Assembly: GCA_050952645.1 (NCBI GenBank)
Contig: JBMNLI010000012.1
Span: forward strand, 160,001-224,000
Reading direction: 5' to 3'
Source of the DNA: Bdellovibrionota bacterium
GTDB taxonomy: Bacteria; Bdellovibrionota_C; UBA2361; CAKMMH01
DNA: 64,000 nucleotides
Positions 30,160-64,000 of the stretch are shown piece by piece (position 1 is the first letter of the stretch; the number at the start of each line of letters is the position of its first letter). The position numbers were made by a program, and so were the translations under genes. The notes under the pieces were generated by a model. It did no database searches and was not told where the DNA came from. It worked only from the letters and a program-made list of their open reading frames with translations.

Positions 30160-32190
30160 ATGCCATTAACGTTAGTAGGTATATTATTTGTTTTAATTTT
30201 ACCTATGCCAACAGCGCTACTAGACGTTTGTATAGCATTAAATATCACGATTTCATTCGTAATATTATTTGCTTCACTCTATATGAAAAGACCTTTAGAC
30301 TTTTCGAGTTTCCCTGCCGTTTTACTAATTACGACGATGCTTAGGTTGGCTATGAGCGTAGCTGCAACTAGACTTATTTTATTAAATGGTGAAAAAGGAT
30401 TATCTGCTGCAGGACACGTAATCCAAGCTTTTGGGCAGTTTGTAGTCGGTGGAAATTACGCCGTAGGTATCGTTATCTTTATCGCAATTAGCATAGTAAA
30501 CTTAAAAGTTATTACTAAAGGTTCGGGGCGTATAGCAGAGGTTTCTGCTCGTTTTACCTTAGATGCTATGCCAGGAAAGCAAATGGCCATAGACTCAGAT
30601 CTTAATACTGGTTTGATAAGCGAAGATGAAGCTAAAGAAAAAAGAAATGATTTGCAAAGAGAGTCTCAATTTTACGGAGCTATGGATGGTGCTGCTAAGT
30701 TTGTAAGCGGAGATGCAATGGCAACACTAATGTTAGTGGTAGTAAATATAGCTGGTGGCTTCTTTATAGGAGTATTTCAAAAAGGTATGCATTGGAAAGA
30801 TGCCGCTTCGCTTTATACATTATTAACTATAGGTGATGGATTAGTAAGCCAAATTCCATCTATTATAATTTCTTTAGCATCAGGTTTAATAGTCGCTAGA
30901 AACGCTTCAGGTGATGATTTAAATACCGAGGTTTTAGGACAACTAGGAAAAAGCCATAGACCTTTATTCTTAACCTCGGGAGTGTGTTTAGGGCTTGCAG
31001 TGCTTCCTGGGCTTCCGTTCCTTCCATTTATGACGCTATTTGTGATTACGGGTATTGTGGCAATTGTGAAAAGAAGAGCCGTTATAGAAGAAAAAGATAA
31101 ACTTATAAAAGTAGCAATAGAAGATAAAGAACCTGTTGGGCCAAAACCTGGAAGCACTGAAGAGGTAGTTAAGTTATTGCCACTCGATGTTTTAGAGTTA
31201 GAGGTAGGCTACGAGCTAGTCGCTATGGTTGGAAGTGGGGAGCTTGTAGAAAGAATACGCTCGCTAAGAAGACAGTTTGCATTAGATTACGGCTTTATAG
31301 TGCCATCTATCCATATTAGAGATAATGTTCGCATCGCCCCTGGGGAATATAGAGTGCTTCTAAAGGGAAATTGCATTGGAAGAGGTGAGCTTATGTCGCA
31401 CCACTTGTTAGCGATGGATCCTGGAAACGTTACGGCTCCTATCGATGGCATTAAAACTAAAGAGCCAACTTTTGGGCTTGATGCTTTGTGGATTCCTGAA
31501 AGCGAAAAAGAAAGAGCTCAATTTTCTGGATACACCGTAGTCGAACATTCAACTATTATCACTACTCATATAACTGAGCTTATTAAAAACAATATGTCTG
31601 AACTTATAGGTAGACAAGAAGTGCAATACTTAGTCGATAATTTAGCTATGAAATATCCTAAGGTTGTAGAAGAGCTAATCCCTGGGCTTTTAACCATAGG
31701 ACAAGTAGAGCAAGTTTTATCAAGATTACTTAAAGAACAAATAAGCATAAGAGATTTAAGAACTATTTTAGAAACTCTTGCAAACTACGCACCACACATA
31801 AAGAGCGTTGAGCTTCTAACTGAACAAGTAAGAAAAAAATTATCACGTTCTATCACAGAAAAGTTTTTAACGAGCGAAGGCACTTTGCCATTAGTTAGCT
31901 TAAATCCAGCTTTAGAAAAAACGCTATCGGAAACTTTGCAAGCAACGGATGAAGGGTCGTACTTAGCATTAGAACCGAGTATGGCACAAAAGGTTATATC
32001 TAAAATTTCAAGCACTTCTGAAAAATTTACGGAGCTAGGTTACAACCCAGTTTTATTGACTACTAGTCATATAAGAGTAGGGATGTCGAACTTTGTAGAA
32101 AAATTCGTCCCAGGAGTGTCTGTGATTAGTCATCAAGAGATAGCCCCTAATACTAGAGTGCAATCTCTCGGTGTAATAAATATAGAATAA
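30160..32190 (+). CDS. flhA: Flagellar export gate protein FlhA (true start may be ATA at 30103)
   Basis: FHIPEP motifs RIAEVSARFTLDAMPGKQMAID, FYGAMDGA and LTIGDGLVSQIP. Confidence 0.96.
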   Translation: MPLTLVGILFVLILPMPTALLDVCIALNITISFVILFASLYMKRPLDFSSFPAVLLITTMLRLAMSVAATRLILLNGEKGLSAAGHVIQAFGQFVVGGNYAVGIVIFIAISIVNLKVITKGSGRIAEVSARFTLDAMPGKQMAIDSDLNTGLISEDEAKEKRNDLQRESQFYGAMDGAAKFVSGDAMATLMLVVVNIAGGFFIGVFQKGMHWKDAASLYTLLTIGDGLVSQIPSIIISLASGLIVARNASGDDLNTEVLGQLGKSHRPLFLTSGVCLGLAVLPGLPFLPFMTLFVITGIVAIVKRRAVIEEKDKLIKVAIEDKEPVGPKPGSTEEVVKLLPLDVLELEVGYELVAMVGSGELVERIRSLRRQFALDYGFIVPSIHIRDNVRIAPGEYRVLLKGNCIGRGELMSHHLLAMDPGNVTAPIDGIKTKEPTFGLDALWIPESEKERAQFSGYTVVEHSTIITTHITELIKNNMSELIGRQEVQYLVDNLAMKYPKVVEELIPGLLTIGQVEQVLSRLLKEQISIRDLRTILETLANYAPHIKSVELLTEQVRKKLSRSITEKFLTSEGTLPLVSLNPALEKTLSETLQATDEGSYLALEPSMAQKVISKISSTSEKFTELGYNPVLLTTSHIRVGMSNFVEKFVPGVSVISHQEIAPNTRVQSLGVINIE

Positions 32191-37035: not shown

Positions 37036-38724
37036 CTAAAATTTTTTTTGTAATTTTTTATTTATTTGAGCAGCTTTTAATCTTACCTTATCAGCATCTA
37101 TATCAAACGCATTTAATATAGTTTTTTGTCTTTTGCTTACTGCATAGCTCAGCTGATATAAATCCTTACTCCCTCTTACCATTTCAATTTTTTCAAGTTC
37201 TTTTAATGCGGCAGGAACATTCATATAGTTTGGCTTTTTTGTTAGCTTAGAAAGTTCTTCATTAAGTAGAATATAAATGCGATTGCGAATTATAAGTGCT
37301 ATAAACTCTATAAAAATTTTAGCAGATACTGCCTGAGATGAATGAACTCTCATACTTTTTGAGCCTAAAAAAGTCTTATCAATAGCAAAAAGTTTCTCAG
37401 TTGCGTCTCTACCCTTGTAAAGTATTATAGCTTCTTTAGCACTCATTTCTTCCGAACTAACAAGACAAAAATACCCACATAAATTAAGAGCCTTTTGAAT
37501 TTCATCTGCTCTCTCTTCTACTTTTCTTAACTTTCCTTGATTGTCATAACTTAAATCAAAAAATTGCTTATACGTTTGTCCAAACTTTGTATCTTTGCCA
37601 ATATGGTTTTTTAAAAATTGTTCAAACTCCTCTAATTTAATTTCTAGTTGCTCCCTCTCAAATGCTTGCTTTTCCGCACTAAAATAAACATGAAAATAAC
37701 GCTCCTTACTATCATCATCATATAATTTTGATTTCACTGTAGTGCCATATACCTTGTATAAGCGAATACTACAGTCTCTTTTAGACTCAAATGTATTCCT
37801 GTTTTCTTCTACTAATTTAGAAACTAAAGCCTTACACCCTTTTACCATCAATAAAAAAGAAAAACCACTATTATCCATATATTGAATATTATATTTACTA
37901 AAATAACCACGGTCTAAAATAAATCCTATCTTTTTATATCCATACTCTATAACCTTATCTGCCATATGAGTAAATTGAGAAACGTCTGTAATAGAACCAG
38001 GATACTCTTCGTAAAATAACGGAACTCTATTCGTTTGATCAAAGGCAATGGATAAATTAAATACTGGGAATCCTTTTTCGTCTTTCGCTTTACCAAACTC
38101 TACTAATTCAACATCACCTGCTTGACAGTTCTTATTAGTCGAATCATATGAAACGTAAACCATTTGATTGCGATCTTTTCCCTTGTTCCAATCGTCAAGA
38201 AAGTTAATTATCTGCTCTTTGCTAACAGAAGAAAGAAAACGACTTATGGTAGAATCACTATAGATGCGCATACCTTTTGTAAAGAGTGGATGAGAAAAGG
38301 CGTAGTCTGGATAATACTGACTGACATTCTCTTCATTTACAATAAAATAACTCGCTAAATCAAGTATAAGTTCACTACGTTCACCAAAATGTTTTTTTAG
38401 TAAAAAAGGCAAATTAAATTCATTTGCTACTTTTTCAATCACCAAGTGGGGACCTATACGAAGACAACAACTGCGTGAAGCGTCTGAAAATTTCTCGGGC
38501 ATAGGGGCATCTGGAAAATAATTACTATAATTGTCATTAGGGTACATAATATCATCTCTACCATCAACTAATTTTCCAATAACGCTACGCTTTGGATTAG
38601 TATACTGTTTCTCTTTATTATAAGTGCGATCGTATTCAAAAAGCACATATTTTGCTTCCCCTTTTTCTCTTATAATTATTTTATTTCTTTGCTCTGGTAA
38701 TGGAACTGTTCGATTGTAATTCAT
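37036..38724 (-). CDS. DDE transposase, IS1634-like
   Basis: YDSTN, YPGSITD, LDRGYFS and Y-x2-R-x3-E-x2-F-x3-K motifs; 562 aa; AAGGAGG RBS. Confidence 0.92.
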   Translation of the reverse strand: MNYNRTVPLPEQRNKIIIREKGEAKYVLFEYDRTYNKEKQYTNPKRSVIGKLVDGRDDIMYPNDNYSNYFPDAPMPEKFSDASRSCCLRIGPHLVIEKVANEFNLPFLLKKHFGERSELILDLASYFIVNEENVSQYYPDYAFSHPLFTKGMRIYSDSTISRFLSSVSKEQIINFLDDWNKGKDRNQMVYVSYDSTNKNCQAGDVELVEFGKAKDEKGFPVFNLSIAFDQTNRVPLFYEEYPGSITDVSQFTHMADKVIEYGYKKIGFILDRGYFSKYNIQYMDNSGFSFLLMVKGCKALVSKLVEENRNTFESKRDCSIRLYKVYGTTVKSKLYDDDSKERYFHVYFSAEKQAFEREQLEIKLEEFEQFLKNHIGKDTKFGQTYKQFFDLSYDNQGKLRKVEERADEIQKALNLCGYFCLVSSEEMSAKEAIILYKGRDATEKLFAIDKTFLGSKSMRVHSSQAVSAKIFIEFIALIIRNRIYILLNEELSKLTKKPNYMNVPAALKELEKIEMVRGSKDLYQLSYAVSKRQKTILNAFDIDADKVRLKAAQINKKLQKKF

Positions 38725-45632: not shown

Positions 45633-47267
45633 ATGAATATAAAATCAGAAAATATATCGAATTTTAAGCAAGTTAAGGCTGACACTTCCTCTTTTTATCT
45701 AGATAATTTAAGTAATCTAAATAAAAACAAAGAGAGTGGATGGGAAGTTTTTTCCTCTATGTTAGAAAATTTTTCTAATACTGCTACGTTTAATAAAGAA
45801 GATATCAAAAGAAATACTAATATTAACAAAAACGATTTTAGAGAAAAAGATATAGAAAATAGAAGATTAGCTAGAAAAGAAGATAATTTTAAAGATAATT
45901 TTAAAGATGATAAAAAAATAGATCGAAAAGAAAGCTTAAAAGAAATTTCTAGAGAAACTAATTTTAGAGAAACTAAAAAGAGTGATAAGAAAATTTCTAA
46001 TAAAAAATCTTCTAATGAAACTAAGCAAAAAGAAGCTACTAGCGAAGAAAGCAATAAGATAAATAAAGAGCAAGCGGAAAATAAAGAAAGTAATAAAATA
46101 AATAGCGAAAAAACTAATAATATAGAACCTAGTAAAATAAGCACTGAAGATGTAAAAGAGCTTGTGCAAAAGATAATAAATATTTTAGAAGCTACAAAGA
46201 AATTTACTAACGATGAAATACTTAAAATAAAAGATGCGCTTGAAAGTGGTAGTTTCGATTTGCAAAAATTTAATTTAAAAGATTTTTTATATAATTTAAA
46301 AGAAGCGATAGAAGGCAAGAGTTTTACTAATTTAGAGTTAAATAAATTTATTAAAGATGTAAGCAAATTAGTAAACGAGCTACAAAGTAGCGGAAAGATA
46401 GATGTAGCATTTTTAGAAAGCGTTTTGCGAGAAAGCACGAAAGAAAAAGAGCAAATAAATAGCGATATTAAAGTTCGTGAAACTTCTAAAGATAAATTAA
46501 ACATAACTTCGGTATTTGAAGAAGTGCTAAAAGATATTTTAAATTCAAATTTACAAGGCGATAATAATGAAAGACTTCAAAATTTTTCGAGTCTCTATCT
46601 AAATAATAATAATTTACCAAATAAAAATACTCAAACAGATTTACTTATAGAAAAGTTTCAAACTATAACTCGTTCGCTAAGTGGTAGTTATGAAAACTCT
46701 TCGATGCTTAATGTAGAAAAGAATTTTTTAGATACTCAAAATATGGTAAATGCTTTAAATACCGATGCGAAAAATAGTATCGATTTAACAGCAAAAAAAG
46801 ACGTGTTCTTAAAAACTTTAGATGGGAATGCTCAAGCTAAAGTTTTAGAGAGAGTAGCAGACGTTCTAAAAACTATTTCTTCGTCGAAAGATGGCTCGTC
46901 TATTTCACTCAGGTTAGACCCACCTAGTCTTGGAGAGGTGAAAGTCGATATGACTTATAAAAATGGAAATTTATTTGCAAGAATTATTGCAGACAATAAA
47001 GAGGTAGAGAACCTATTAAAAAGCAAAGCCGCAGAGCTTCAGCAAATTTTAAGAAATTCTGGTATAGATGCAAATAAGATAAATGTTTTTATAGCTTCTA
47101 AAGATAATTATGAAAATAGAGAAAGTAAAAATATGAGTGAAAGCAATATAAAAAACGATATCTTAAAAATTTTAAGTCAAAGCGATGATGAAAATAGTGA
47201 TGCTCGAAGCGATGCTTTAGAAGCACTTGAAAATAAAAATGAAAGTTTATCTAGATGGATAGCTTAA
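45633..47267 (+). CDS. fliK: Flagellar hook-length control protein FliK
   Basis: Long low-complexity N-terminus plus the C-terminal LRLDPPSLGEVKV...V..LL......L...L..SGI T3S4 domain. Confidence 0.82.
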   Translation: MNIKSENISNFKQVKADTSSFYLDNLSNLNKNKESGWEVFSSMLENFSNTATFNKEDIKRNTNINKNDFREKDIENRRLARKEDNFKDNFKDDKKIDRKESLKEISRETNFRETKKSDKKISNKKSSNETKQKEATSEESNKINKEQAENKESNKINSEKTNNIEPSKISTEDVKELVQKIINILEATKKFTNDEILKIKDALESGSFDLQKFNLKDFLYNLKEAIEGKSFTNLELNKFIKDVSKLVNELQSSGKIDVAFLESVLRESTKEKEQINSDIKVRETSKDKLNITSVFEEVLKDILNSNLQGDNNERLQNFSSLYLNNNNLPNKNTQTDLLIEKFQTITRSLSGSYENSSMLNVEKNFLDTQNMVNALNTDAKNSIDLTAKKDVFLKTLDGNAQAKVLERVADVLKTISSSKDGSSISLRLDPPSLGEVKVDMTYKNGNLFARIIADNKEVENLLKSKAAELQQILRNSGIDANKINVFIASKDNYENRESKNMSESNIKNDILKILSQSDDENSDARSDALEALENKNESLSRWIA

Positions 47268-53519: not shown

Positions 53520-54335
53520 ATGAGTTATTTTTTTGATAACAATAATTATCTTATAGCTAGAAATATTATAGATCTACTCTTAGTGACGTTTATCATTTAT
53601 AGAGTGCTTCTTCTTTTAAAGGGAACTAGAGCCGCAGCGATGCTTATAGGTTTATTTATAGTAGTTGCTACGTATTTTATCGCAAGCTTTTTAGAATTAA
53701 AAACTCTTTCTTGGATATTATATCAATTCTTAAGTTCGATTATTATAATCTTGATAGTAATTTTTCAAGATGAAATAAAAAGAGGCCTAACAAAAGTAGG
53801 AATAAAATCTTTTTTTAAATTGCAACGCCAAACGGACGTAGAAACGGATAAAATTATCGATGAGTTGACGCTTGCTACGATTAGGCTTTCTCAAGATAAA
53901 ACTGGTGCTCTTATCGTAATAAAGGGAGATGTGGGATTAGATGATTTTTTAGAAGATGCGACGATTCTTGATGCTGTAATAAATAGGAAATTAATTCTTG
54001 CAGTTTTCGATAAAAATTCTGCTCTTCACGATGGGGCAATGATTATTGAGGGTGGGAGAATTAAAGCCGTAGGGTGCATGCTTCCTCTTAGCTACGACCC
54101 GAATATAGACCCAATCTTAGGCACTAGGCATAGAGCGGCACTAGGTATCTCAGAAAGAAGCGATGCGATAATTATCGTAGTATCTGAAGAAACTGGGGGG
54201 ATTACGATTTGTAGAGATAGAAAACTACATAGGAATTTAGACCCTGTAATGCTTAGAGAGTTTTTGCAAAATTTTTTATCTTTACAAAATAATAATAAAA
54301 ATAATAATTCAAATAAAAGTGAGGAAATTAAGTGA
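53520..54335 (+). CDS. cdaA: Diadenylate cyclase CdaA (DacA)
   Basis: Three TM helices and the DAC motifs LHDGA, GTRHRAA and VSEETG. Confidence 0.95.
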   Translation: MSYFFDNNNYLIARNIIDLLLVTFIIYRVLLLLKGTRAAAMLIGLFIVVATYFIASFLELKTLSWILYQFLSSIIIILIVIFQDEIKRGLTKVGIKSFFKLQRQTDVETDKIIDELTLATIRLSQDKTGALIVIKGDVGLDDFLEDATILDAVINRKLILAVFDKNSALHDGAMIIEGGRIKAVGCMLPLSYDPNIDPILGTRHRAALGISERSDAIIIVVSEETGGITICRDRKLHRNLDPVMLREFLQNFLSLQNNNKNNNSNKSEEIK

Positions 54336-55225
54336 AAAATTTTGGACTTCTTATAATCTCATTTATTATCGCTATTTGTTTAATGTTTATAGTTAATGAT
54401 AGGTCTGGGACATCTAGCACAAACTTAGTAGTGCCAGTAGTTACCTCAAATTTACCTACCGATAAAATAGTCGTGTCAACCTCAAAATCTCAAGTGCAAG
54501 TAACTATAAAAGGTCCATCTTACTTATTAAATAATATTAGCAGAACTGGTGTTAATCTTAATATAAAATTTCCAGACAATGTTTCTAATGCTTATAGCAG
54601 AATGCTCTCTCCTAGCGATTTACACTTGCCAACAGGAGTGGAGGTTTTGAATATAGAACCTCATGAACTAAGCTTCACGATAGATAATTTGGTATCTAAG
54701 CGAGTTCCCGTAGTAGTGCCTAGAATAGGCTCGTTAGATAATGCTTATAGACTAGTAGAGTTTAAAGTAGAGCCTGAAGCCGTTGAACTTGTAGGTTCTG
54801 AAATAGAGTTAAGGGGGATAAAAAGAGTTCAAACTGAGTCTGTAGATTTAAGAAATATAACTAGTAGCACGGTGCAAGATGTTAAACTTAGACAAGTTGG
54901 TTCTTTTGTTAAAGCAAATAGCGAAATGGTTAAAGTTAATATCATAATAAGAGACGTGCAAGATACAAAAGAGATAAAGGGACTTAATATTGAAATTAGA
55001 AATGAGGTTAATAAACAGTTTGACGTTAATTATAAAACTGTAGATGTTATGGTTAAGGGAGCTAAAAAAGATATAAAAGTGTTAAATGCAAATAAGGTAA
55101 GGCCTTTTATAAAAATAGATGAGGAAGCTAGTAAAAATAAGCAAGCAAATTTAGAGTTTGAGCTTCCAGATGGGATTTCACTATTCAGTAGCAATCCTAA
55201 AAATGTTTCGTTAAAGGAAAAATAG
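54332..55225 (+). CDS. cdaR: CdaR/YbbR-domain regulator
   Basis: N-terminal TM and repeated V.V..GP / P..V...G YbbR-like units; lies between cdaA and glmM. Confidence 0.85.
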   Translation: MKNFGLLIISFIIAICLMFIVNDRSGTSSTNLVVPVVTSNLPTDKIVVSTSKSQVQVTIKGPSYLLNNISRTGVNLNIKFPDNVSNAYSRMLSPSDLHLPTGVEVLNIEPHELSFTIDNLVSKRVPVVVPRIGSLDNAYRLVEFKVEPEAVELVGSEIELRGIKRVQTESVDLRNITSSTVQDVKLRQVGSFVKANSEMVKVNIIIRDVQDTKEIKGLNIEIRNEVNKQFDVNYKTVDVMVKGAKKDIKVLNANKVRPFIKIDEEASKNKQANLEFELPDGISLFSSNPKNVSLKEK

Positions 55226-55317
55226 AAAACAATTAAGATAAGTTTTTTAAAAAAAACAAAAAAGAAAAAACAAAAAAACAAAGCTATATAATTTTAGTTA
55301 AATTTAAAGGAGATATT

Positions 55318-56676
55318 ATGACGGTTGTATTTTCAAAAACGGGAATTAGAGGGGAAGCTGGAAAGTATCCATTAGAGCCTATATCTTTAGTAAGATTAGG
55401 AATGATTATAGCAAAGGTATTTAGAGAAAATAATAACTCTCCCTTATCATTCGTAATAGGACGAGATACTAGAGTTTCTAGTTATATGATAACGAACGCT
55501 TTAACCTCAGGGCTATTAGCAGGGGGAGCAAATGTAGTGCTAGTAGGCGTTGAGCCTACGCCAGCTATAGTGTATTTCGGAAAGAGTTTTAGAGCGTGTG
55601 CTAGCATTGCAGTTACTGCCTCTCACAATCCGTATCAAGACAACGGGTTAAAGCTTTTTTTATCCGATGGGAATAGGATTTCAGACGATATGCAAAAGAA
55701 GATAGATGAGCTTTTACAAAGTGATGCTAAATTTGAGGTGGCAAGAGAGTTAGGAAAAATTATAAAAATAGAAGACGCAGATGGAAGGTATATTGAATAC
55801 TTAAAAAGTTTTTTTCCAAATGATTTTAATTTAAGAGATTTTAAAATTGGGTTAGATGTTGCAAATGGTGCCTGTTATAAAGTAGCTGAAAAATTATTTA
55901 CAGAACTTGGTGCTAATATAGAGATTAGAGGAAATAAACCTAATGGAAAAAATATAAATGCAGGTTTTGGGAGTGTTTACCCGGAGGTTGTAGCTAAATT
56001 AGTAGTCGATAATAGTTTAGATTTAGGAATAGCCGTTGATGGTGATGGCGATAGAGTGGTAATGGTAACTAGCGATGGAAAAATACTAGATGGCGATGCA
56101 TTATTAGCGATAATCGGTTCTACTTTAAAAGAAATGGGAAAATTAAATAGTAATATAAATACTAACGTAATAGTCGCTAATGTTATGTCTAATTTAGGTC
56201 TCGATCTTTTTTTAAAAAACCATGGAGTTGCAGTCAAGCGTTCAAACGTTGGTGAGGTGCCAGTGTTAAATGAGATGAAAAAAAATGATGCTAGTGTTGG
56301 AGGTGAACAATCTGGGCATATCATATTTAAAGATGGTGGAAACTCAGGAGATGCGCTACTAGCTTCCCTAAAGATACTAGAAATTATGAAGACGACGAAC
56401 AAATCTTTAAAAGAATTAAAAAGAGATTACAAAGGTTTCCCTCAATGCCTTAAAAATTTAAGTGTTGCTTCAAAGCCTGAGATAGAAGAAATTAAAGGGT
56501 ATGCTAAGTTAAAAGAAGATATAGAAAACGAGTTTAAGGAAGATGGCCGAATTTTAATAAGGTATTCTGAAACTGAAAATAAGATAAGAATTATGGTAGA
56601 ACATAAAGATGAGAGCGTTTGCAAAAAGGCTCTAGAAAAATTAGTAATATTTTTTGAAGAAAAAATTGGTATATAG
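55318..56676 (+). CDS. glmM: Phosphoglucosamine mutase
   Basis: TASHNPYQDNG, DGDGDR and GGEQSGH motifs; cdaA-cdaR-glmM synteny. Confidence 0.9.
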   Translation: MTVVFSKTGIRGEAGKYPLEPISLVRLGMIIAKVFRENNNSPLSFVIGRDTRVSSYMITNALTSGLLAGGANVVLVGVEPTPAIVYFGKSFRACASIAVTASHNPYQDNGLKLFLSDGNRISDDMQKKIDELLQSDAKFEVARELGKIIKIEDADGRYIEYLKSFFPNDFNLRDFKIGLDVANGACYKVAEKLFTELGANIEIRGNKPNGKNINAGFGSVYPEVVAKLVVDNSLDLGIAVDGDGDRVVMVTSDGKILDGDALLAIIGSTLKEMGKLNSNINTNVIVANVMSNLGLDLFLKNHGVAVKRSNVGEVPVLNEMKKNDASVGGEQSGHIIFKDGGNSGDALLASLKILEIMKTTNKSLKELKRDYKGFPQCLKNLSVASKPEIEEIKGYAKLKEDIENEFKEDGRILIRYSETENKIRIMVEHKDESVCKKALEKLVIFFEEKIGI

Positions 56677-56701
56677 TAGTTTTTTTTAAGTTTAAATAAA
56701 A

Positions 56702-57118
56702 ATGGATAATTTTAAAAACAAAGAATTTTTAATATCTTTAGAAGATGATTTAAAAAAATTTGCTTACGATTTTGCAAAAGTTTTAAAACCCTCAAAAATA
56801 GTTTCTTTAGTAGGAGAGCTAGGAGCTGGAAAGACTACTTTTGTTAAGTATTTAGTTAAGGCTTTAAATATCGATGCTTCCGTATCTTCTCCCTCTTATG
56901 TATTAGAAAATATTTATGAGGGGAGAGATTTTTTTGTAAGCCACTGGGATTTGTATAGATTAAGCGATTGTCCTATGGAGCTTTTAAATGAAGATTTTAA
57001 AAATGCTATAGTTCTTATCGAATGGGGAGATAAATTTAATGAAATTGAAAGCATAGTGGATATTACCATAAGCTTTGAGATTTTAGAAAATGAAAAAAGA
57101 CGGCTAAGGGTTTTTTAG
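56702..57118 (+). CDS. tsaE: tRNA t6A biosynthesis ATPase TsaE
   Basis: GELGAGKTT, VSSPSY, HWDLYRL and IEW motifs. Confidence 0.93.
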   Translation: MDNFKNKEFLISLEDDLKKFAYDFAKVLKPSKIVSLVGELGAGKTTFVKYLVKALNIDASVSSPSYVLENIYEGRDFFVSHWDLYRLSDCPMELLNEDFKNAIVLIEWGDKFNEIESIVDITISFEILENEKRRLRVF

Positions 57119-57191: not shown

Positions 57192-59879
57192 TTATTTTTT
57201 TTCTAAGCAAGTAGCTCTGCTAGTTATATCTTGCGAGTTGAAAATGTCTAAATTGCTTAAGATTTTTTCTGCATCTTTGTCCATGTTATTTTTTATAACA
57301 TTATATTCGGTGTCAACATAACCACGATCGCAACCAAAGCGCTCTTTATTTAAACGGTTTTGCTCGTTGTTTAGATAAGGATTGTTTTTACAGCCTTCAT
57401 TTGCTTTCGATAATACATCTATAGCTTGCTTATGCAGTTTTTTAAATTCTTCTTTTAGTAATTTCGTATTGTAAGACACATTGTAGTTATTACAAATCGA
57501 TGATTTACATTCGATAGCATTTTCATCTAGAACTTCTTTTTCAATAGTATTTAAATAATCATCTAATGATTTTTTAAAACGTGTCATAAATACGCTTAAA
57601 TATGCATTTTCTCTTAGAATTATTTTCTTATAAGTCCTAACTAATGAGCGGTCGTAATCTTCTATTTGTAATTTTAGTGCATTTTTTATTAAACGAAGAT
57701 TAGTTAAATATTGGCATTCATATTCGTCTAATATTTTATTATTTCCCTGTTTATCTTTAGTAGATGCTGTAATAAAATTATTATTGTTTTTATCTGGCAA
57801 TTGCCAAGAATAAATAGAATCGTAATCTAATGGTAGAAAAACGATTTTTTCTAGAGGGCTTACACTATTTTCAAAAAAGAGTTCAGGTTGTCCTAAGCCT
57901 TCCTTTATTTCTTCTTTTTGACCATCTTTGCTCGTTTTAATAATTAAATTATTAACTCCTTTAGGGTAATAAATAGGAAATTCATTTTTATTATCGTAGC
58001 TAAATATAGCTATTTTGCTTTTAAATAAATCTTGCACAAACCCTTCAAACTTAGGAATTACGTTTTCGCATTTTGTAGAGTTTTTATTTGCTACTACTGT
58101 TTCGATGTCTTCATTAGTATTTCTTAAACTCCAAGAAACGCTAGAGTTTTCATTAAACACTACTTGAGTAGTTCCCTTATGGACGCCAGGCAAGAATTTA
58201 GTCATTTGCCAAGTTGGCGTTTTAGGTGCATCATCATTAGTAGAAACGGTTATCATACTTTTATAACTGCCACTATAAAGGTTTGTCTCATTGCTTCTAT
58301 TTCCTACATTGATTTCAATTGGCTTTTCAAGCTTATTTTCATAACCAAAATATGCAGTAAGAGTTTTATCTCCATTGTCGGTAATACATTCTAGCCTTGG
58401 CGTTAAGTTTTTAACTACCACTTTAGGTGTACGAGTAGGAGTAGGCGTTCTCTTTACTACTCTTTTAGAAGGCTCAGTTGATGTAGTAGGAGCTGGTGTA
58501 TCGCAACCGTTTTTTACCGATGTCTTAATTTTTATAGGGTTCCTGTATGAAATCGATCTTAAAGGGCAAGAATAAGTATACTGTTTGCCATCTATACATT
58601 CATCTGTTTTTTGAAAGTTTTCTCCGGTTTGTGGAATATAGTTCTTTAAAATCATAACGGTTCCATCTTTTTTAATGCAAGAATAGCGATCCGCACATTT
58701 AAAAGCATAACAAGTTTGCCCCTCTTTGCATTTGCTTAAATCTGCCCCGTAGCACTCAACACATTTTTTTAATGAAGGATTATATACCTGAGTTTCAGGA
58801 CATCGAGAGTCTTTCGTATCTGGTGTTTTTAGTTCTTCTTGCTTTGTAGCATCGCTAGGGATATCATTTTTGATATCGTTTTCTTTCGGGCAATTTGCTT
58901 TAGTCTTTGTTTCATCTATTATAAAATTACGAACGGTTGGTCCTTCATCTCTACAAGTAAAAGTGTGCTGAATATTGTCTTTGCAATAATCAGTTTTTCT
59001 ATTATCACGCCCAAGCGGAGAGCCGTTTTTATACTTTTGAACCGTTCCGTCTTTCTTTTCGCAAGTATATGCATCTTTACATTGATTATTTAAACACATT
59101 TGTCCTTTTTTACATTTTGATGTATCACTTTCAGTGCATTGCACGCATTGCTGTAAAAATGAAGAATACACTTGAGTCGATAGGCAAGCGTAGCATTTAG
59201 AATTTTTGCATACAGGTTTATCTTTCGGGCATCGAATACCGCTATATCCTGCATCATAGCTAGCATTACATTCGGGGTTGCAAGATAAAGTAGCTCCATT
59301 ACAGCCATATTTACATGGCTCAGCTTTTGTAGCTATTTGATTATTTTTGCAATACGCTATATTGATAAATCTATTGCCAAGAATGCAGCTAGTCGTTTTT
59401 TCAGTTCCGTACATATACGCTCCATTTTTAGTTCTAATTGCTCCTCTAGGTGTTAGTGCGCAACCATAAACATCTTTTTTAGGGTCTATTAATTTTTTTC
59501 CTTTACAAGTAAGACTAGTTACGTACAAAGTGCCTAAATCTCTATCCGTAATTTCTCTGCAAGTCGATGATTGAGACCCTGTGCATAAATAATATTTATA
59601 GTGTTTTGAATTTGTTTCAGTTGCACCAATACTTTTTATATTAGAGCCAACGTTAAAAGAATTATAATTCTGAGATAGGCAAAATAGCGCAGCTGGTGTA
59701 TTACCTTTAGGCGATAACTCATGTTTTAATAAATACCTATTATCGAGTCCGTGTCTAGAAGAAATGGTTCTCCCGATATTAAATTCTGAGAATATTTTTT
59801 CATCACTCGCTCCATAGCTAATATTAGAAAACCCTAAAAATGAAAGTGTAATTAAAACTAAATATATATATTTTTTCAT
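57192..59879 (-). CDS. Large secreted cysteine-rich repeat protein of unknown function
   Basis: Signal peptide, duplicated Cys-rich module, Pro/Thr linker, two related beta-rich domains and a helical C-terminus. Confidence 0.8.
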   Translation of the reverse strand: MKKYIYLVLITLSFLGFSNISYGASDEKIFSEFNIGRTISSRHGLDNRYLLKHELSPKGNTPAALFCLSQNYNSFNVGSNIKSIGATETNSKHYKYYLCTGSQSSTCREITDRDLGTLYVTSLTCKGKKLIDPKKDVYGCALTPRGAIRTKNGAYMYGTEKTTSCILGNRFINIAYCKNNQIATKAEPCKYGCNGATLSCNPECNASYDAGYSGIRCPKDKPVCKNSKCYACLSTQVYSSFLQQCVQCTESDTSKCKKGQMCLNNQCKDAYTCEKKDGTVQKYKNGSPLGRDNRKTDYCKDNIQHTFTCRDEGPTVRNFIIDETKTKANCPKENDIKNDIPSDATKQEELKTPDTKDSRCPETQVYNPSLKKCVECYGADLSKCKEGQTCYAFKCADRYSCIKKDGTVMILKNYIPQTGENFQKTDECIDGKQYTYSCPLRSISYRNPIKIKTSVKNGCDTPAPTTSTEPSKRVVKRTPTPTRTPKVVVKNLTPRLECITDNGDKTLTAYFGYENKLEKPIEINVGNRSNETNLYSGSYKSMITVSTNDDAPKTPTWQMTKFLPGVHKGTTQVVFNENSSVSWSLRNTNEDIETVVANKNSTKCENVIPKFEGFVQDLFKSKIAIFSYDNKNEFPIYYPKGVNNLIIKTSKDGQKEEIKEGLGQPELFFENSVSPLEKIVFLPLDYDSIYSWQLPDKNNNNFITASTKDKQGNNKILDEYECQYLTNLRLIKNALKLQIEDYDRSLVRTYKKIILRENAYLSVFMTRFKKSLDDYLNTIEKEVLDENAIECKSSICNNYNVSYNTKLLKEEFKKLHKQAIDVLSKANEGCKNNPYLNNEQNRLNKERFGCDRGYVDTEYNVIKNNMDKDAEKILSNLDIFNSQDITSRATCLEKK

Positions 59880-61349: not shown

Positions 61350-61744
61350 GATTATTGAGATTTAAGTAAAAAAAGGCTCTGCAATATAAAATATATAAAA
61401 TGCAAAGCCTAGTGTGTAAATTAGTTAGAAAAAGTATTTATTCGGGAGTATCAACAAAACTCTGTAAAAGTGAAAATTCTAAGTTAATAAATCTATAGTA
61501 CTTGTTAAAACATAATTTATTAGAAATACTTCTGAAATAATTCCTAATAAACAAAATAAATTTATAAATATATTTATATTAATTTAATATTTTTATGCAA
61601 ATTATAAAAATTAAAGATTTTTTCTTAAAAAAATACCTTTATATTTCCGCTTTTAGTTTTAATTTTTAACTTCTTATGGTAAAATAACGCTCATTTGATG
61701 ATTTTATCGTTTAATTATTAAAAAAATTAAAAAGGAAAAATTTT

Positions 61745-63040
61745 ATGAACGTTTGCCTAAAATCTTTCGAGAATAAAAAAATTCTAATAGTCGATGATGA
61801 AGAAAGCATTAGAAAAATTTTACAAAGCATATTTGAAGATGCAGGTTTCAAAGTTTTCTTAGCAAAAGATGGTGATGAAGCTATAAAACAAGTAGAGGAT
61901 AATAACCCAGATTTAGTATTTTTAGATATATGGATGCCAGGGAAAGATGGGCTTGAAGTTATGGAAATTTTAAAAGAAAAGAGAAAAGATCTTCCTATAA
62001 TTATGATTAGTGGACACGCTACTATCGCTACCGCCGTTAAGGCAACTCAAGAAGGAGCCTTTGATTTTATAGAAAAACCTTTAGATTTAGACTTGATATT
62101 AAACACTGTCGAAAAGGCTTTAAACTCAAAAGGAGATCTCTCTAGAAATGATGCGAAGCTAGAAAATAGAAAAATAAACAATATCGTTTTTCAAAATCAA
62201 GCGATGAAAGGTAAAAAAATCCCACAAAGAACTTTAAAAACGAGTGCAGTTTTATACGGTTTAGGTTTACATTCTGGCAAAAAAACTGGAATCATCTTAG
62301 AGCCACTTCCAGCAAACTCTGGAATCCATTTTGAAGGTATCACAGAAGAGGCTGTAATTCCAGCGCATATAGATTTTGTATCTTCGACAGGATTTGCTAC
62401 AACATTAAAATTAGGAGATAAACAAGTAGCTACCATAGAACATATGATGTCGTCTTTAAGTGCTTATAGAATTTCAAACCTTTTAATAAAATGCAATGGT
62501 GAAGTTCCCGTAATGGACGGCTCATCGATAGAATTTTGCAAACTTATAGAAAATGTAGGTATCGTAGAGCAAGAGGGAGATTGGTATGAAATAAAAATTG
62601 ATGAGACGCTTAAAATAGAAGATGGGCAGAAATCGATAACCGTAGAAAAGGCTGATATACCAAGTATAAAATATATTCTTGAATATCCAGAACCGCTAGG
62701 AAGACAAGAAGTCGAGTTTGTTATGAATGATGTAGAGGTTTATAAAAAAGAAATAGCAACCGCTAGAACGTTTGGTTTTGTAAAGGATATAAATATGCTC
62801 CAAGATAAGGGGCTTGCACAAGGTGGGCAATTTAATAATTTTGTATTATATGGTGGTGAAGGCCCTATAAATTCTGAATTACACTTTAAAGATGAGGCTG
62901 CAAGACATAAAGTTTTAGATGCTATGGGTGATTTGTATTTATTAGGACGCCCAATTTGTGGTAAAATCACGGCCGTAATGACTGGGCATTCGGATAATAT
63001 AAAATTAGTAAAATTATTAAAAGAAAAAATGGAGTGTTAA
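61745..63040 (+). CDS. lpxC: Receiver domain-LpxC fusion (UDP-3-O-acyl-GlcNAc deacetylase with N-terminal REC)
   Basis: REC domain with DD17-18, D61, S89 and K111. LpxC domain with QRTL, GLHSG, TIEH, EVPVMDGSS, ARTFGF, HKVLDAMGD and GH. Confidence 0.92.
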   Translation: MNVCLKSFENKKILIVDDEESIRKILQSIFEDAGFKVFLAKDGDEAIKQVEDNNPDLVFLDIWMPGKDGLEVMEILKEKRKDLPIIMISGHATIATAVKATQEGAFDFIEKPLDLDLILNTVEKALNSKGDLSRNDAKLENRKINNIVFQNQAMKGKKIPQRTLKTSAVLYGLGLHSGKKTGIILEPLPANSGIHFEGITEEAVIPAHIDFVSSTGFATTLKLGDKQVATIEHMMSSLSAYRISNLLIKCNGEVPVMDGSSIEFCKLIENVGIVEQEGDWYEIKIDETLKIEDGQKSITVEKADIPSIKYILEYPEPLGRQEVEFVMNDVEVYKKEIATARTFGFVKDINMLQDKGLAQGGQFNNFVLYGGEGPINSELHFKDEAARHKVLDAMGDLYLLGRPICGKITAVMTGHSDNIKLVKLLKEKMEC

Positions 63041-63168: not shown

Positions 63169-64000
63169 ATGTTTAGATTATTTTCACCTAATTTAGCTAT
63201 CGATTTAGGAACGGCTAATACGCTTTTTTACGAAAGTGGAACTGGAGTCGTTTTAAATGAACCATCAATGGTTGCGCTTTCCTATTTTGAAGGCAAACAA
63301 GAGATCGTCGCTATTGGTGCAGAGGCTAAACAGATGCTTGGTAGAACTCCCGAAGGGGTAGATGTTATAAGACCTATAAGAACTGGAGTTATAGCAGATT
63401 TTGATGTAGCAAGTAGAATGATAAAATATTTCTTAAATTCTGCTAGAAAAAAAAGAGCTTCTCTTATTAGACCATCGCATATCATTGTAGGAGTCCCTAG
63501 TGGAATTACAGAGGTTGAAAAACGTGCTATAAAAGATGCTCTCGAAGGAGAAGCAAGAGATATAAAGCTAATAGATGAGGCGATGGCGGCAGCCATTGGG
63601 TGTAATCTTCCAGTGACGGAGGCTACTGCATCTATGATAGTCGATATAGGCGGCGGGACTACAGATATTGCAGTTATAAGTCTCTCAGATATAGTCTACT
63701 CAACATCTATTAGGCAAGGGGGAGACGCTATGGACGAGGCTATAATAAATTACATCAAAAGAAAACATAGAATTTTTATAGGAGAGTCAACCGCAGAGCT
63801 TATAAAAATGACTATCGGTTCTGCGCATAAAACTTACGATAATCAACAAGTAGAGGTAAGAGGAAGAGATTTGTCAACGGGCGTCCCAGGAACAGTTGTA
63901 ATAAGTGGGATAGAGATAAGAGAGGCGATTTTTGAGGTTATCTCAAACATTATAGAAGCTATCAAGCAAGTTTTAGAAAATACTCTTCCAGAGCTTTCAG
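63169..64000 (+). CDS. mreB: Rod shape-determining actin homolog MreB (runs off the window)
   Basis: ATG 63169 reads MFRLFSPNLAIDLGTANT...NEPS...GVIADF...AAAIG...DIGGGTT; missing from the ORF track because no stop lies in the window. Confidence 0.95.
   Translation, partial: MFRLFSPNLAIDLGTANTLFYESGTGVVLNEPSMVALSYFEGKQEIVAIGAEAKQMLGRTPEGVDVIRPIRTGVIADFDVASRMIKYFLNSARKKRASLIRPSHIIVGVPSGITEVEKRAIKDALEGEARDIKLIDEAMAAAIGCNLPVTEATASMIVDIGGGTTDIAVISLSDIVYSTSIRQGGDAMDEAIINYIKRKHRIFIGESTAELIKMTIGSAHKTYDNQQVEVRGRDLSTGVPGTVVISGIEIREAIFEVISNIIEAIKQVLENTLPELS

Follow-up and report, generated by a model that had tools for sequence, protein, structure and literature searches.

A receiver domain of NtrX type fused to LpxC in Bdellovibrionota: candidate two-component control of lipid A synthesis at the enzyme

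LpxC catalyzes the committed step in the synthesis of lipid A, the outer-membrane anchor, and the factors that limit it outside enterobacteria are a live question. A stretch of 64,000 nucleotides from a Bdellovibrionota genome (the window) carries a gene in which LpxC is preceded, in the same frame, by a receiver domain (REC). This locus raises the question of whether lipid A synthesis in the lineage could be controlled by two-component signaling that acts on LpxC itself, as the original prediction suggested.

The controls of LpxC collected in a 2025 review (PMC12444477) are proteolysis, MurA binding, Ght and indirect transcriptional effects of NtrYX/ChvGI; in its sections 9-10 neither phosphorylation of the enzyme nor a fusion is mentioned. 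A term search of a 2026 review (PMC13333357) gave no 'receiver', 'fusion' or 'two-component', a passage of 10.1101/2021.11.05.467447 mentions just the Desulfovibrio operon, and LpxC or PF03331 does not appear in 10 supplement files of PMC4558063. No description of a REC-LpxC fusion was found in the literature searched, subscription journals being mostly outside it, so that the fusion is apparently undescribed so far.

The fused gene and its product

The product of the gene (P0001, Table 1) is encoded, as had been read from the DNA, by a single uninterrupted frame of 431 amino acids. Pfam Response_reg matches its residues 13-122 with 115.5 bits (cut-off 30.2), and Pfam LpxC (PF03331) residues 161-425 with 265.8 bits (cut-off 27). 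These are the only two Pfam domains in the protein; AAA+ and Fis-type HTH domains are absent. TIGR00325 (lpxC) scores 224.5 bits, above its cut-off of 187.25, and NF009667 (bifunctional LpxC-FabZ) reaches 198.5 against a cut-off of 465, on the LpxC part only, no FabZ domain being present. The receiver residues are found in the expected places (D17/D18, D61 in LDIW, S89 in ISGH, K111 in EKP), and so are those of the deacetylase (E232/H233 in TIEH, H388/D392 in HKVLD, H415 in GH); the latter five are invariant across 122 aligned rows. The receiver, zinc-ligand and catalytic residues are presumed to play the roles assigned to them in their families. A linker separates the domains as predicted, its length being 38 residues between the Pfam matches rather than about 35. 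In a predicted structure, discussed below, the LpxC part matches solved LpxC proteins with Z 38.6-39.0 and rmsd 1.3-1.6 Å over 265-273 residues. The best match of the receiver fold is the Brucella NtrX REC 4d6x (118 residues, rmsd 1.1 Å); other receivers come within 1 Z unit of it, which amounts to a tie. Among the 50 solved chains listed, none matches REC and LpxC together. By features that can be checked in sequence and fold, P0001 is thus both an LpxC and a phospho-accepting receiver.

Table 1. Features of the REC-lpxC locus and the candidate kinase gene (window positions unless marked; G000, source genome; C12, its contig that carries the window)
Feature	Position	Strand	Basis
REC-LpxC fusion gene (P0001, 431 aa, uninterrupted ORF)	61745..63040	+	
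Shine-Dalgarno-like AAGGA, 8 nt ahead of first ATG	61732..61736	+	sequence
NtrX-type receiver domain, aa 13-122 (D17, D18, D61, S89, F108, K111)	61781..62110	+	
D61 (putative phospho-Asp) codon	61925-61927	+	
Linker between receiver and LpxC, aa 123-160	62111..62224	+	
Internal M154 codon, inside linker, without Shine-Dalgarno	62204-62206	+	
LpxC deacetylase domain, aa 161-425 (E232/H233, H388/D392, H415)	62225..63019	+	
Fusion-specific domain I patch codons (V169, Y171, G182, I184, L247, K249), predicted interface	62249..62491	+	
mreB, continues past window end	63169..63999	+	Pfam
NtrY-type kinase, 766 aa, 95 kb upstream, outside window	G000:C12:124811-127111		profile and Pfam

The frame could be an assembly chimera, a risk raised with the original prediction, or LpxC could be translated separately from the in-frame Met at 154. 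The junction is bridged in independent data: a contig of run X2, from a different study than the possible source run X1, spans 62015-62496 with zero differences (four of the 15 listed runs were examined; X3 and X6 are without junction coverage). Separate translation is disfavored by the Shine-Dalgarno-like AAGGA ahead of the first ATG, with nothing similar before M154, and by the aligned column, which is Met in just 23 of 122 rows. The distribution of the architecture argues in the same direction. A single match runs along nearly the whole fused protein in 102 of 124 genomes of the phylum, and six further genomes, once fetched, carry full fusions with longer linkers, which gives 108/124. Of the remaining 16, the four fetched (G029, G036, G042, G117) break at contig ends, and six, including G029, have no match at E 1e-36. 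Both Pfam domains are present in 120/120 homologues of residues 1-200 among the matches listed. Locus L002, the nearest one with a name and 83% identical, carries the label Bdellovibrionota; other labels among cluster members and matches are Deferrimicrobiaceae, Dadabacteria, Nitrospinota, Entotheonellia and Spirochaetota. Such comparison indicates that the fusion is real and widespread; the artefact reading is already largely refuted, and its probability is negligible.

In the source genome (1.95 Mb, 93.75% complete, 31% GC) P0001 is the sole LpxC match, which agrees with its being the only lpxC there. Genes lpxA, lpxB, lpxK and waaA are present, each over the cut-off, and FtsH is present as well. 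LapB (NF008757) reaches at best 26.5 bits against 363; since only E. coli passes this cut-off among the controls, a distant LapB homologue could be missed.

The predicted position of mreB 3' of the fusion gene holds, its adjacency varying among relatives. A functional link to mreB was considered and rejected, since the neighbors of REC-lpxC vary; purA is the usual upstream gene (29/38 loci). A scan for promoters and terminators gave chance level (nine found, 9.7 expected). Elsewhere in the window lie a gene for an 895-aa cysteine-rich protein (57192-59879, minus strand) with an N-terminal hydrophobic stretch, internal repeats and no Pfam match, and a cdaA (diadenylate cyclase)-ybbR-phosphoglucosamine-mutase-like-tsaE cluster (53520-57118, Pfam), so that c-di-AMP synthesis and a likely glmM are neighbors in this diderm genome. 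A DDE transposase gene is found at 37036-38724 (minus strand), with two similar-looking ORFs at G000:C11:12575-16051. FlhA-family, FliK and motAB genes (window 30160-32190 and 45633-47267; G000:C12:224258-226604) show that flagellar genes are kept in this small AT-rich genome. An apparent Ser/Thr kinase of 416 aa with a C-terminal receiver, the kinase label being given by eye, is encoded at G000:C12:103824-105074.

Origin of the receiver and decay of the NtrX output domains

The NtrX/NtrC-like signature noted in the receiver was borne out by family and tree assignments. The best REC family is NF051870 (NtrX) with 135.8 bits, below the whole-protein cut-off of 600, and the best solved REC sequences are 4d6x and 5m7n. 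In the REC tree, a branch with SH-aLRT 92 sets 32 fused and 57 NtrX-type receivers apart from 32 sigma-54 activators of the order; this is a quick tree of 125 receivers and 117 columns with many open forks, and the support of 92 is below the starred level. On this evidence the receiver of P0001 descends from NtrX, and the protein is not itself an NtrX.

Intermediates were obtained from a profile search of 1.84 billion representatives, which returned proteins of 650-736 aa in which REC is followed by a weak match to sigma-54 AAA+, in many cases an HTH, and finally LpxC. In none of 57 such long forms (15 clusters at 50% identity plus members) is any of the GAFTGA, Walker B and R-finger patterns kept; in unfused NtrX all three are kept in 43/47. 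The cluster representatives are P0125, P0127, P0129-P0135, P0137, P0138, P0141, P0142, P0144 and P0148, with members labelled Nitrospina, Nitrospinota or Deltaproteobacteria. Walker A survives in most long forms and an HTH in some, and binding of nucleotide or DNA could thus persist. A shorter arrangement, REC-HTH-LpxC, is represented by P0140 (491 aa), which has a member labelled Ca. Entotheonellia.

In the LpxC tree (93 rows) a 99% branch separates all fused forms from 34 stand-alone proteins; three rows lacking REC fall within the fused clade, and short forms group with long ones at several places. The constraint that 22 short forms be held together against 25 other rows fails the AU test (p 3e-103). 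The decayed AAA+ part together with this pairing points to fusion of NtrX with LpxC and subsequent repeated loss. Comparison of these forms suggests that a whole NtrX likely joined LpxC in a single event, and indicates that the AAA+/HTH part decayed and was then deleted repeatedly, the receiver being retained. D61 is kept in 202/203 short and 56/57 long forms, and the linker varies from 24 to 115 aa across fused forms. P0145 (D61N) and P0148 (D18N, D61S, K111Q) are dead receivers, so phosphorylation is dispensable in some lineages.

Gene order in unfused relatives bears on how the fusion could have arisen. In 35/67 loci a separate lpxC precedes an NtrX-type gene by 2-3 kb, and the gene in between encodes an NtrY-type kinase, sometimes with DUF4390 before it (identities from Pfam, applied to two genes of each kind). 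An origin by in-frame loss of the DNA separating ntrX from an lpxC 3' of it was considered and discarded, because unfused lpxC sits upstream of ntrY-ntrX; this order rather implies a rearrangement that placed lpxC behind a whole ntrX. A passage on Syntrophobacter (PMC3333781) describes lpxC directly upstream of the operon orthologous to DVU2931/DVU2934, the same order as in those 35 loci. In Desulfovibrio vulgaris, lpxC is given there as the single mapped target of the sigma-54 regulator DVU2934, which makes DVU2931/DVU2934 a two-component system dedicated to lpxC, like the proposed NtrY/REC-LpxC pair. DVU2934 controls lpxC by DNA binding, whereas here regulator and target form one protein.

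NtrY as the candidate kinase

The absence of an adjacent kinase, as originally noted, holds within the window; a strong candidate is nevertheless encoded on the same contig. This NtrY-type protein scores 565 bits (next kinase 100), has the domain order NtrY_N-HAMP-PAS-HisKA-HATPase with HEIKN, and its H, N, G1, F and G2 boxes are intact. An NtrY match is found in 116/124 genomes of the phylum and in 73/73 at least 90% complete, and in 0/30 ntrY loci does a REC gene lie within 1.5 kb; since kin are not independent, these counts show conservation and are not a statistical test. On the fused-REC profile the sigma-54 activator receivers of 40 relatives score at most 119 bits and NtrX-type receivers 140-173; no NtrX-type partner for NtrY was found in these 40 relatives or at the 30 loci examined. 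Loss of NtrY from family f22, which has a diverged fusion, was considered and rejected for genome G041, where a diverged locus of ruvB, a 176-aa gene and a kinase occurs.

Linkage is seen directly in 4/22 fused metagenome loci, many other contigs being short, where ntrY immediately precedes REC-lpxC. In two of these four it stands behind ruvB, as does ntrY of the source genome, whose protein is the best match of three full-length NtrY from such loci. The H-box EVARRIAHEIKNPLTPI is common to this protein and those NtrY, and it alone among the seven kinases of the genome has it. The C12 NtrY is, we infer from these comparisons, the cognate kinase/phosphatase of P0001.

In the source genome ruvB is followed by the orphan ntrY (G000:C12:123670-127111; L099:6671-10112). 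Passages on Bordetella (PMC13001219) describe modulation of an NtrY-family kinase by PlrP/DUF4390. Most relatives likewise resemble a three-component NtrYX system: a DUF4390-like gene lies between ruvB and ntrY in 27/27 loci of other families, whereas ruvB abuts ntrY in 3/3 loci of the family of the source genome. A profile of the 27 genes matched nothing among the ORFs of that genome (93.75% complete); a Pfam DUF4390 search gave no match, and the controls were likewise unmatched. With this gene missing, NtrY of the family may act without a periplasmic partner.

Proposed control of LpxC by the receiver

A first AlphaFold model from 79 less diverse rows had pTM 0.71. The second, from 122 diverse rows, has pLDDT 93.8 and pTM 0.87. 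A perfect LpxC with REC displaced by 15-25 Å would, by arithmetic, give pTM of at most 0.70-0.74, and the second model, being above this ceiling, is therefore confident on the position of REC, which is predicted to rest on LpxC. Only residues 131-140 of the linker appear flexible (pLDDT 57), an ordered N-terminal extension of LpxC beginning at about 143. In the fused forms V169, G182, I184, L247 and K249 are hydrophobic, Gly or Lys; the alternating polar pattern at these positions in stand-alone LpxC suggests that they point outward. At least four of the five are retained in 37/41 short forms, 15/15 long forms and 0/34 stand-alone LpxC, a patch defined post hoc on the same data in forms of one clade, so that it may reflect shared ancestry. 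The three apparently REC-less rows were set aside from this count: the patch is lost in P0221 and kept in P0176 (judged from the first 40 residues), and P0196 lies on a 925-base contig. Mean-field covariation (Neff ~120) places plausible intra-domain pairs first; K99-S377 (rank 9) and F106-Y369 (rank 12), interspersed with pairs that suggest other contacts, hint weakly that the α4-β5 face might meet insert II. Mutual information over the 122 rows gave noise, its highest values coming mainly from variable columns.

In the proposed mechanism NtrY would phosphorylate D61 of the receiver, which would be docked on LpxC, its α4-β5 face probably lying close to the sheet of domain I and to insert II, a part of LpxC that lines the acyl-chain tunnel. 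Phosphorylation would reshape this face and so change catalysis allosterically. Part of PMC11046580 describes inhibition of LpxC by LapB from a position outside the acyl tunnel, and activation by MurA in Pseudomonas is described in passages of PMC12444477 and PMC9995270; such effects of binding make allosteric control feasible. That NtrY phosphorylates D61 and the docked receiver tunes LpxC activity directly is assigned a probability of about 0.6. The earlier proposal of two-component control of LpxC itself gains support from the comparisons and the model: the phospho-site is kept, the transcription machinery of NtrX has repeatedly decayed and been deleted, and a single NtrY is kept without an NtrX partner. 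The presence of an NtrX-derived receiver on the only LpxC found suggests that a membrane sensor kinase likely switches lipid A synthesis directly at the enzyme, rather than by way of gene expression or proteolysis. Against direct control stand the dead P0145 and P0148, the apparent loss of REC in P0221 and P0176, and the range of linker lengths.

The sign of the effect can be argued by analogy in both directions. Activation of LpxC by phosphorylation is given slightly better than even odds, because the ancestor was of the sigma-54 activator type and the Desulfovibrio relative targets lpxC. Inhibition, somewhat short of even odds, is considered because alphaproteobacterial NtrYX lowers lpxC transcripts. 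Passages in PMC7240162 and PMC13001219 tie NtrYX to the envelope and to lpxC transcript levels, the Rhodobacter effect being indirect (PMC7240162).

NtrY-dependent phosphorylation could instead set the amount or place of LpxC, the receiver serving as a degradation tag or bringing LpxC to the inner membrane, where NtrY would hold it. LpxC of E. coli is under proteolysis, and membrane localisation via Ght is described for Neisseria in part of PMC12444477; the source genome has FtsH and no LapB match near the cut-off, which could call for an adaptor function of another kind, and the linker is variable. Neither a tag nor a tether needs the confident placement of REC on LpxC or a fusion-specific patch, and the fused forms have no C-terminal tail beyond the last helix; this alternative is unlikely. 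A receiver that is phosphorylated or bound by NtrY without effect on LpxC, as a structural remnant or a phosphate sink or feedback element on a constitutive enzyme, would accommodate the dead and the apparently REC-less proteins; it is rather improbable in view of the almost invariant phospho-site, the survival of REC through several independent AAA+ deletions and the lack of another NtrX-type partner in the 40 relatives searched. About as improbable is a monomer-dimer switch, in which phosphorylation would drive REC-REC dimerization and the patch would be an LpxC-LpxC interface. NtrX receivers dimerize, the α4-β5 face of the fused receivers is as conserved as in NtrX, and the patch is present also in long forms, where REC and LpxC are separated by about 260-340 residues and two chains could be brought together by an HTH. 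Yet REC already has a fixed place on LpxC in the model of a single chain, and solved LpxC proteins are generally monomers.

CheB (REC-methylesterase), PleD/WspR and RpfG are response regulators with enzyme outputs, a receiver being joined to a catalytic domain as in P0001, and relief of inhibition as in CheB would be a working analogy. Their outputs are signaling enzymes; that of P0001 is a biosynthetic enzyme, essential and placed at the committed step of its pathway. The closest known two-component systems are those of NtrY-NtrX (Brucella 4d6x/5m7n, Rhodobacter NtrYX, Bordetella PlrSR/PlrP): the receiver groups with NtrX and the candidate kinase has the NtrY domain order given above. In contrast to NtrX, whose effect on lpxC in Rhodobacter is transcriptional, P0001 has an enzyme as its output and, without AAA+ or HTH, cannot act on DNA. 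With stand-alone LpxC it shares the fold and catalytic residues. Those enzymes have protein regulators (LapB/FtsH/YejM in E. coli, MurA in P. aeruginosa, Ght in Neisseria), and LpxC activity is known to respond to bound proteins; here the regulator is covalently attached and putatively phosphorylatable.

The kinase candidate, the evolutionary series and the predicted interface make the fusion directly testable. It offers a two-protein, purifiable system for direct control of LpxC, a clean biochemical read-out of the long-debated NtrY signal and, possibly, an allosteric site that occurs naturally in an antibiotic target. If the proposed control is true, the committed step of lipopolysaccharide synthesis would be regulated by phosphorylation through a transcription factor turned allosteric switch, and the living intermediates (REC-dead AAA-HTH-LpxC, REC-HTH-LpxC and REC-LpxC) would record the transition. 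It is a little more probable than the contrary that, throughout this phylum and in parts of several others, transcriptional control of lpxC has given way to a regulator welded to its target, NtrY reading the envelope and the receiver gating the acyl-chain tunnel.
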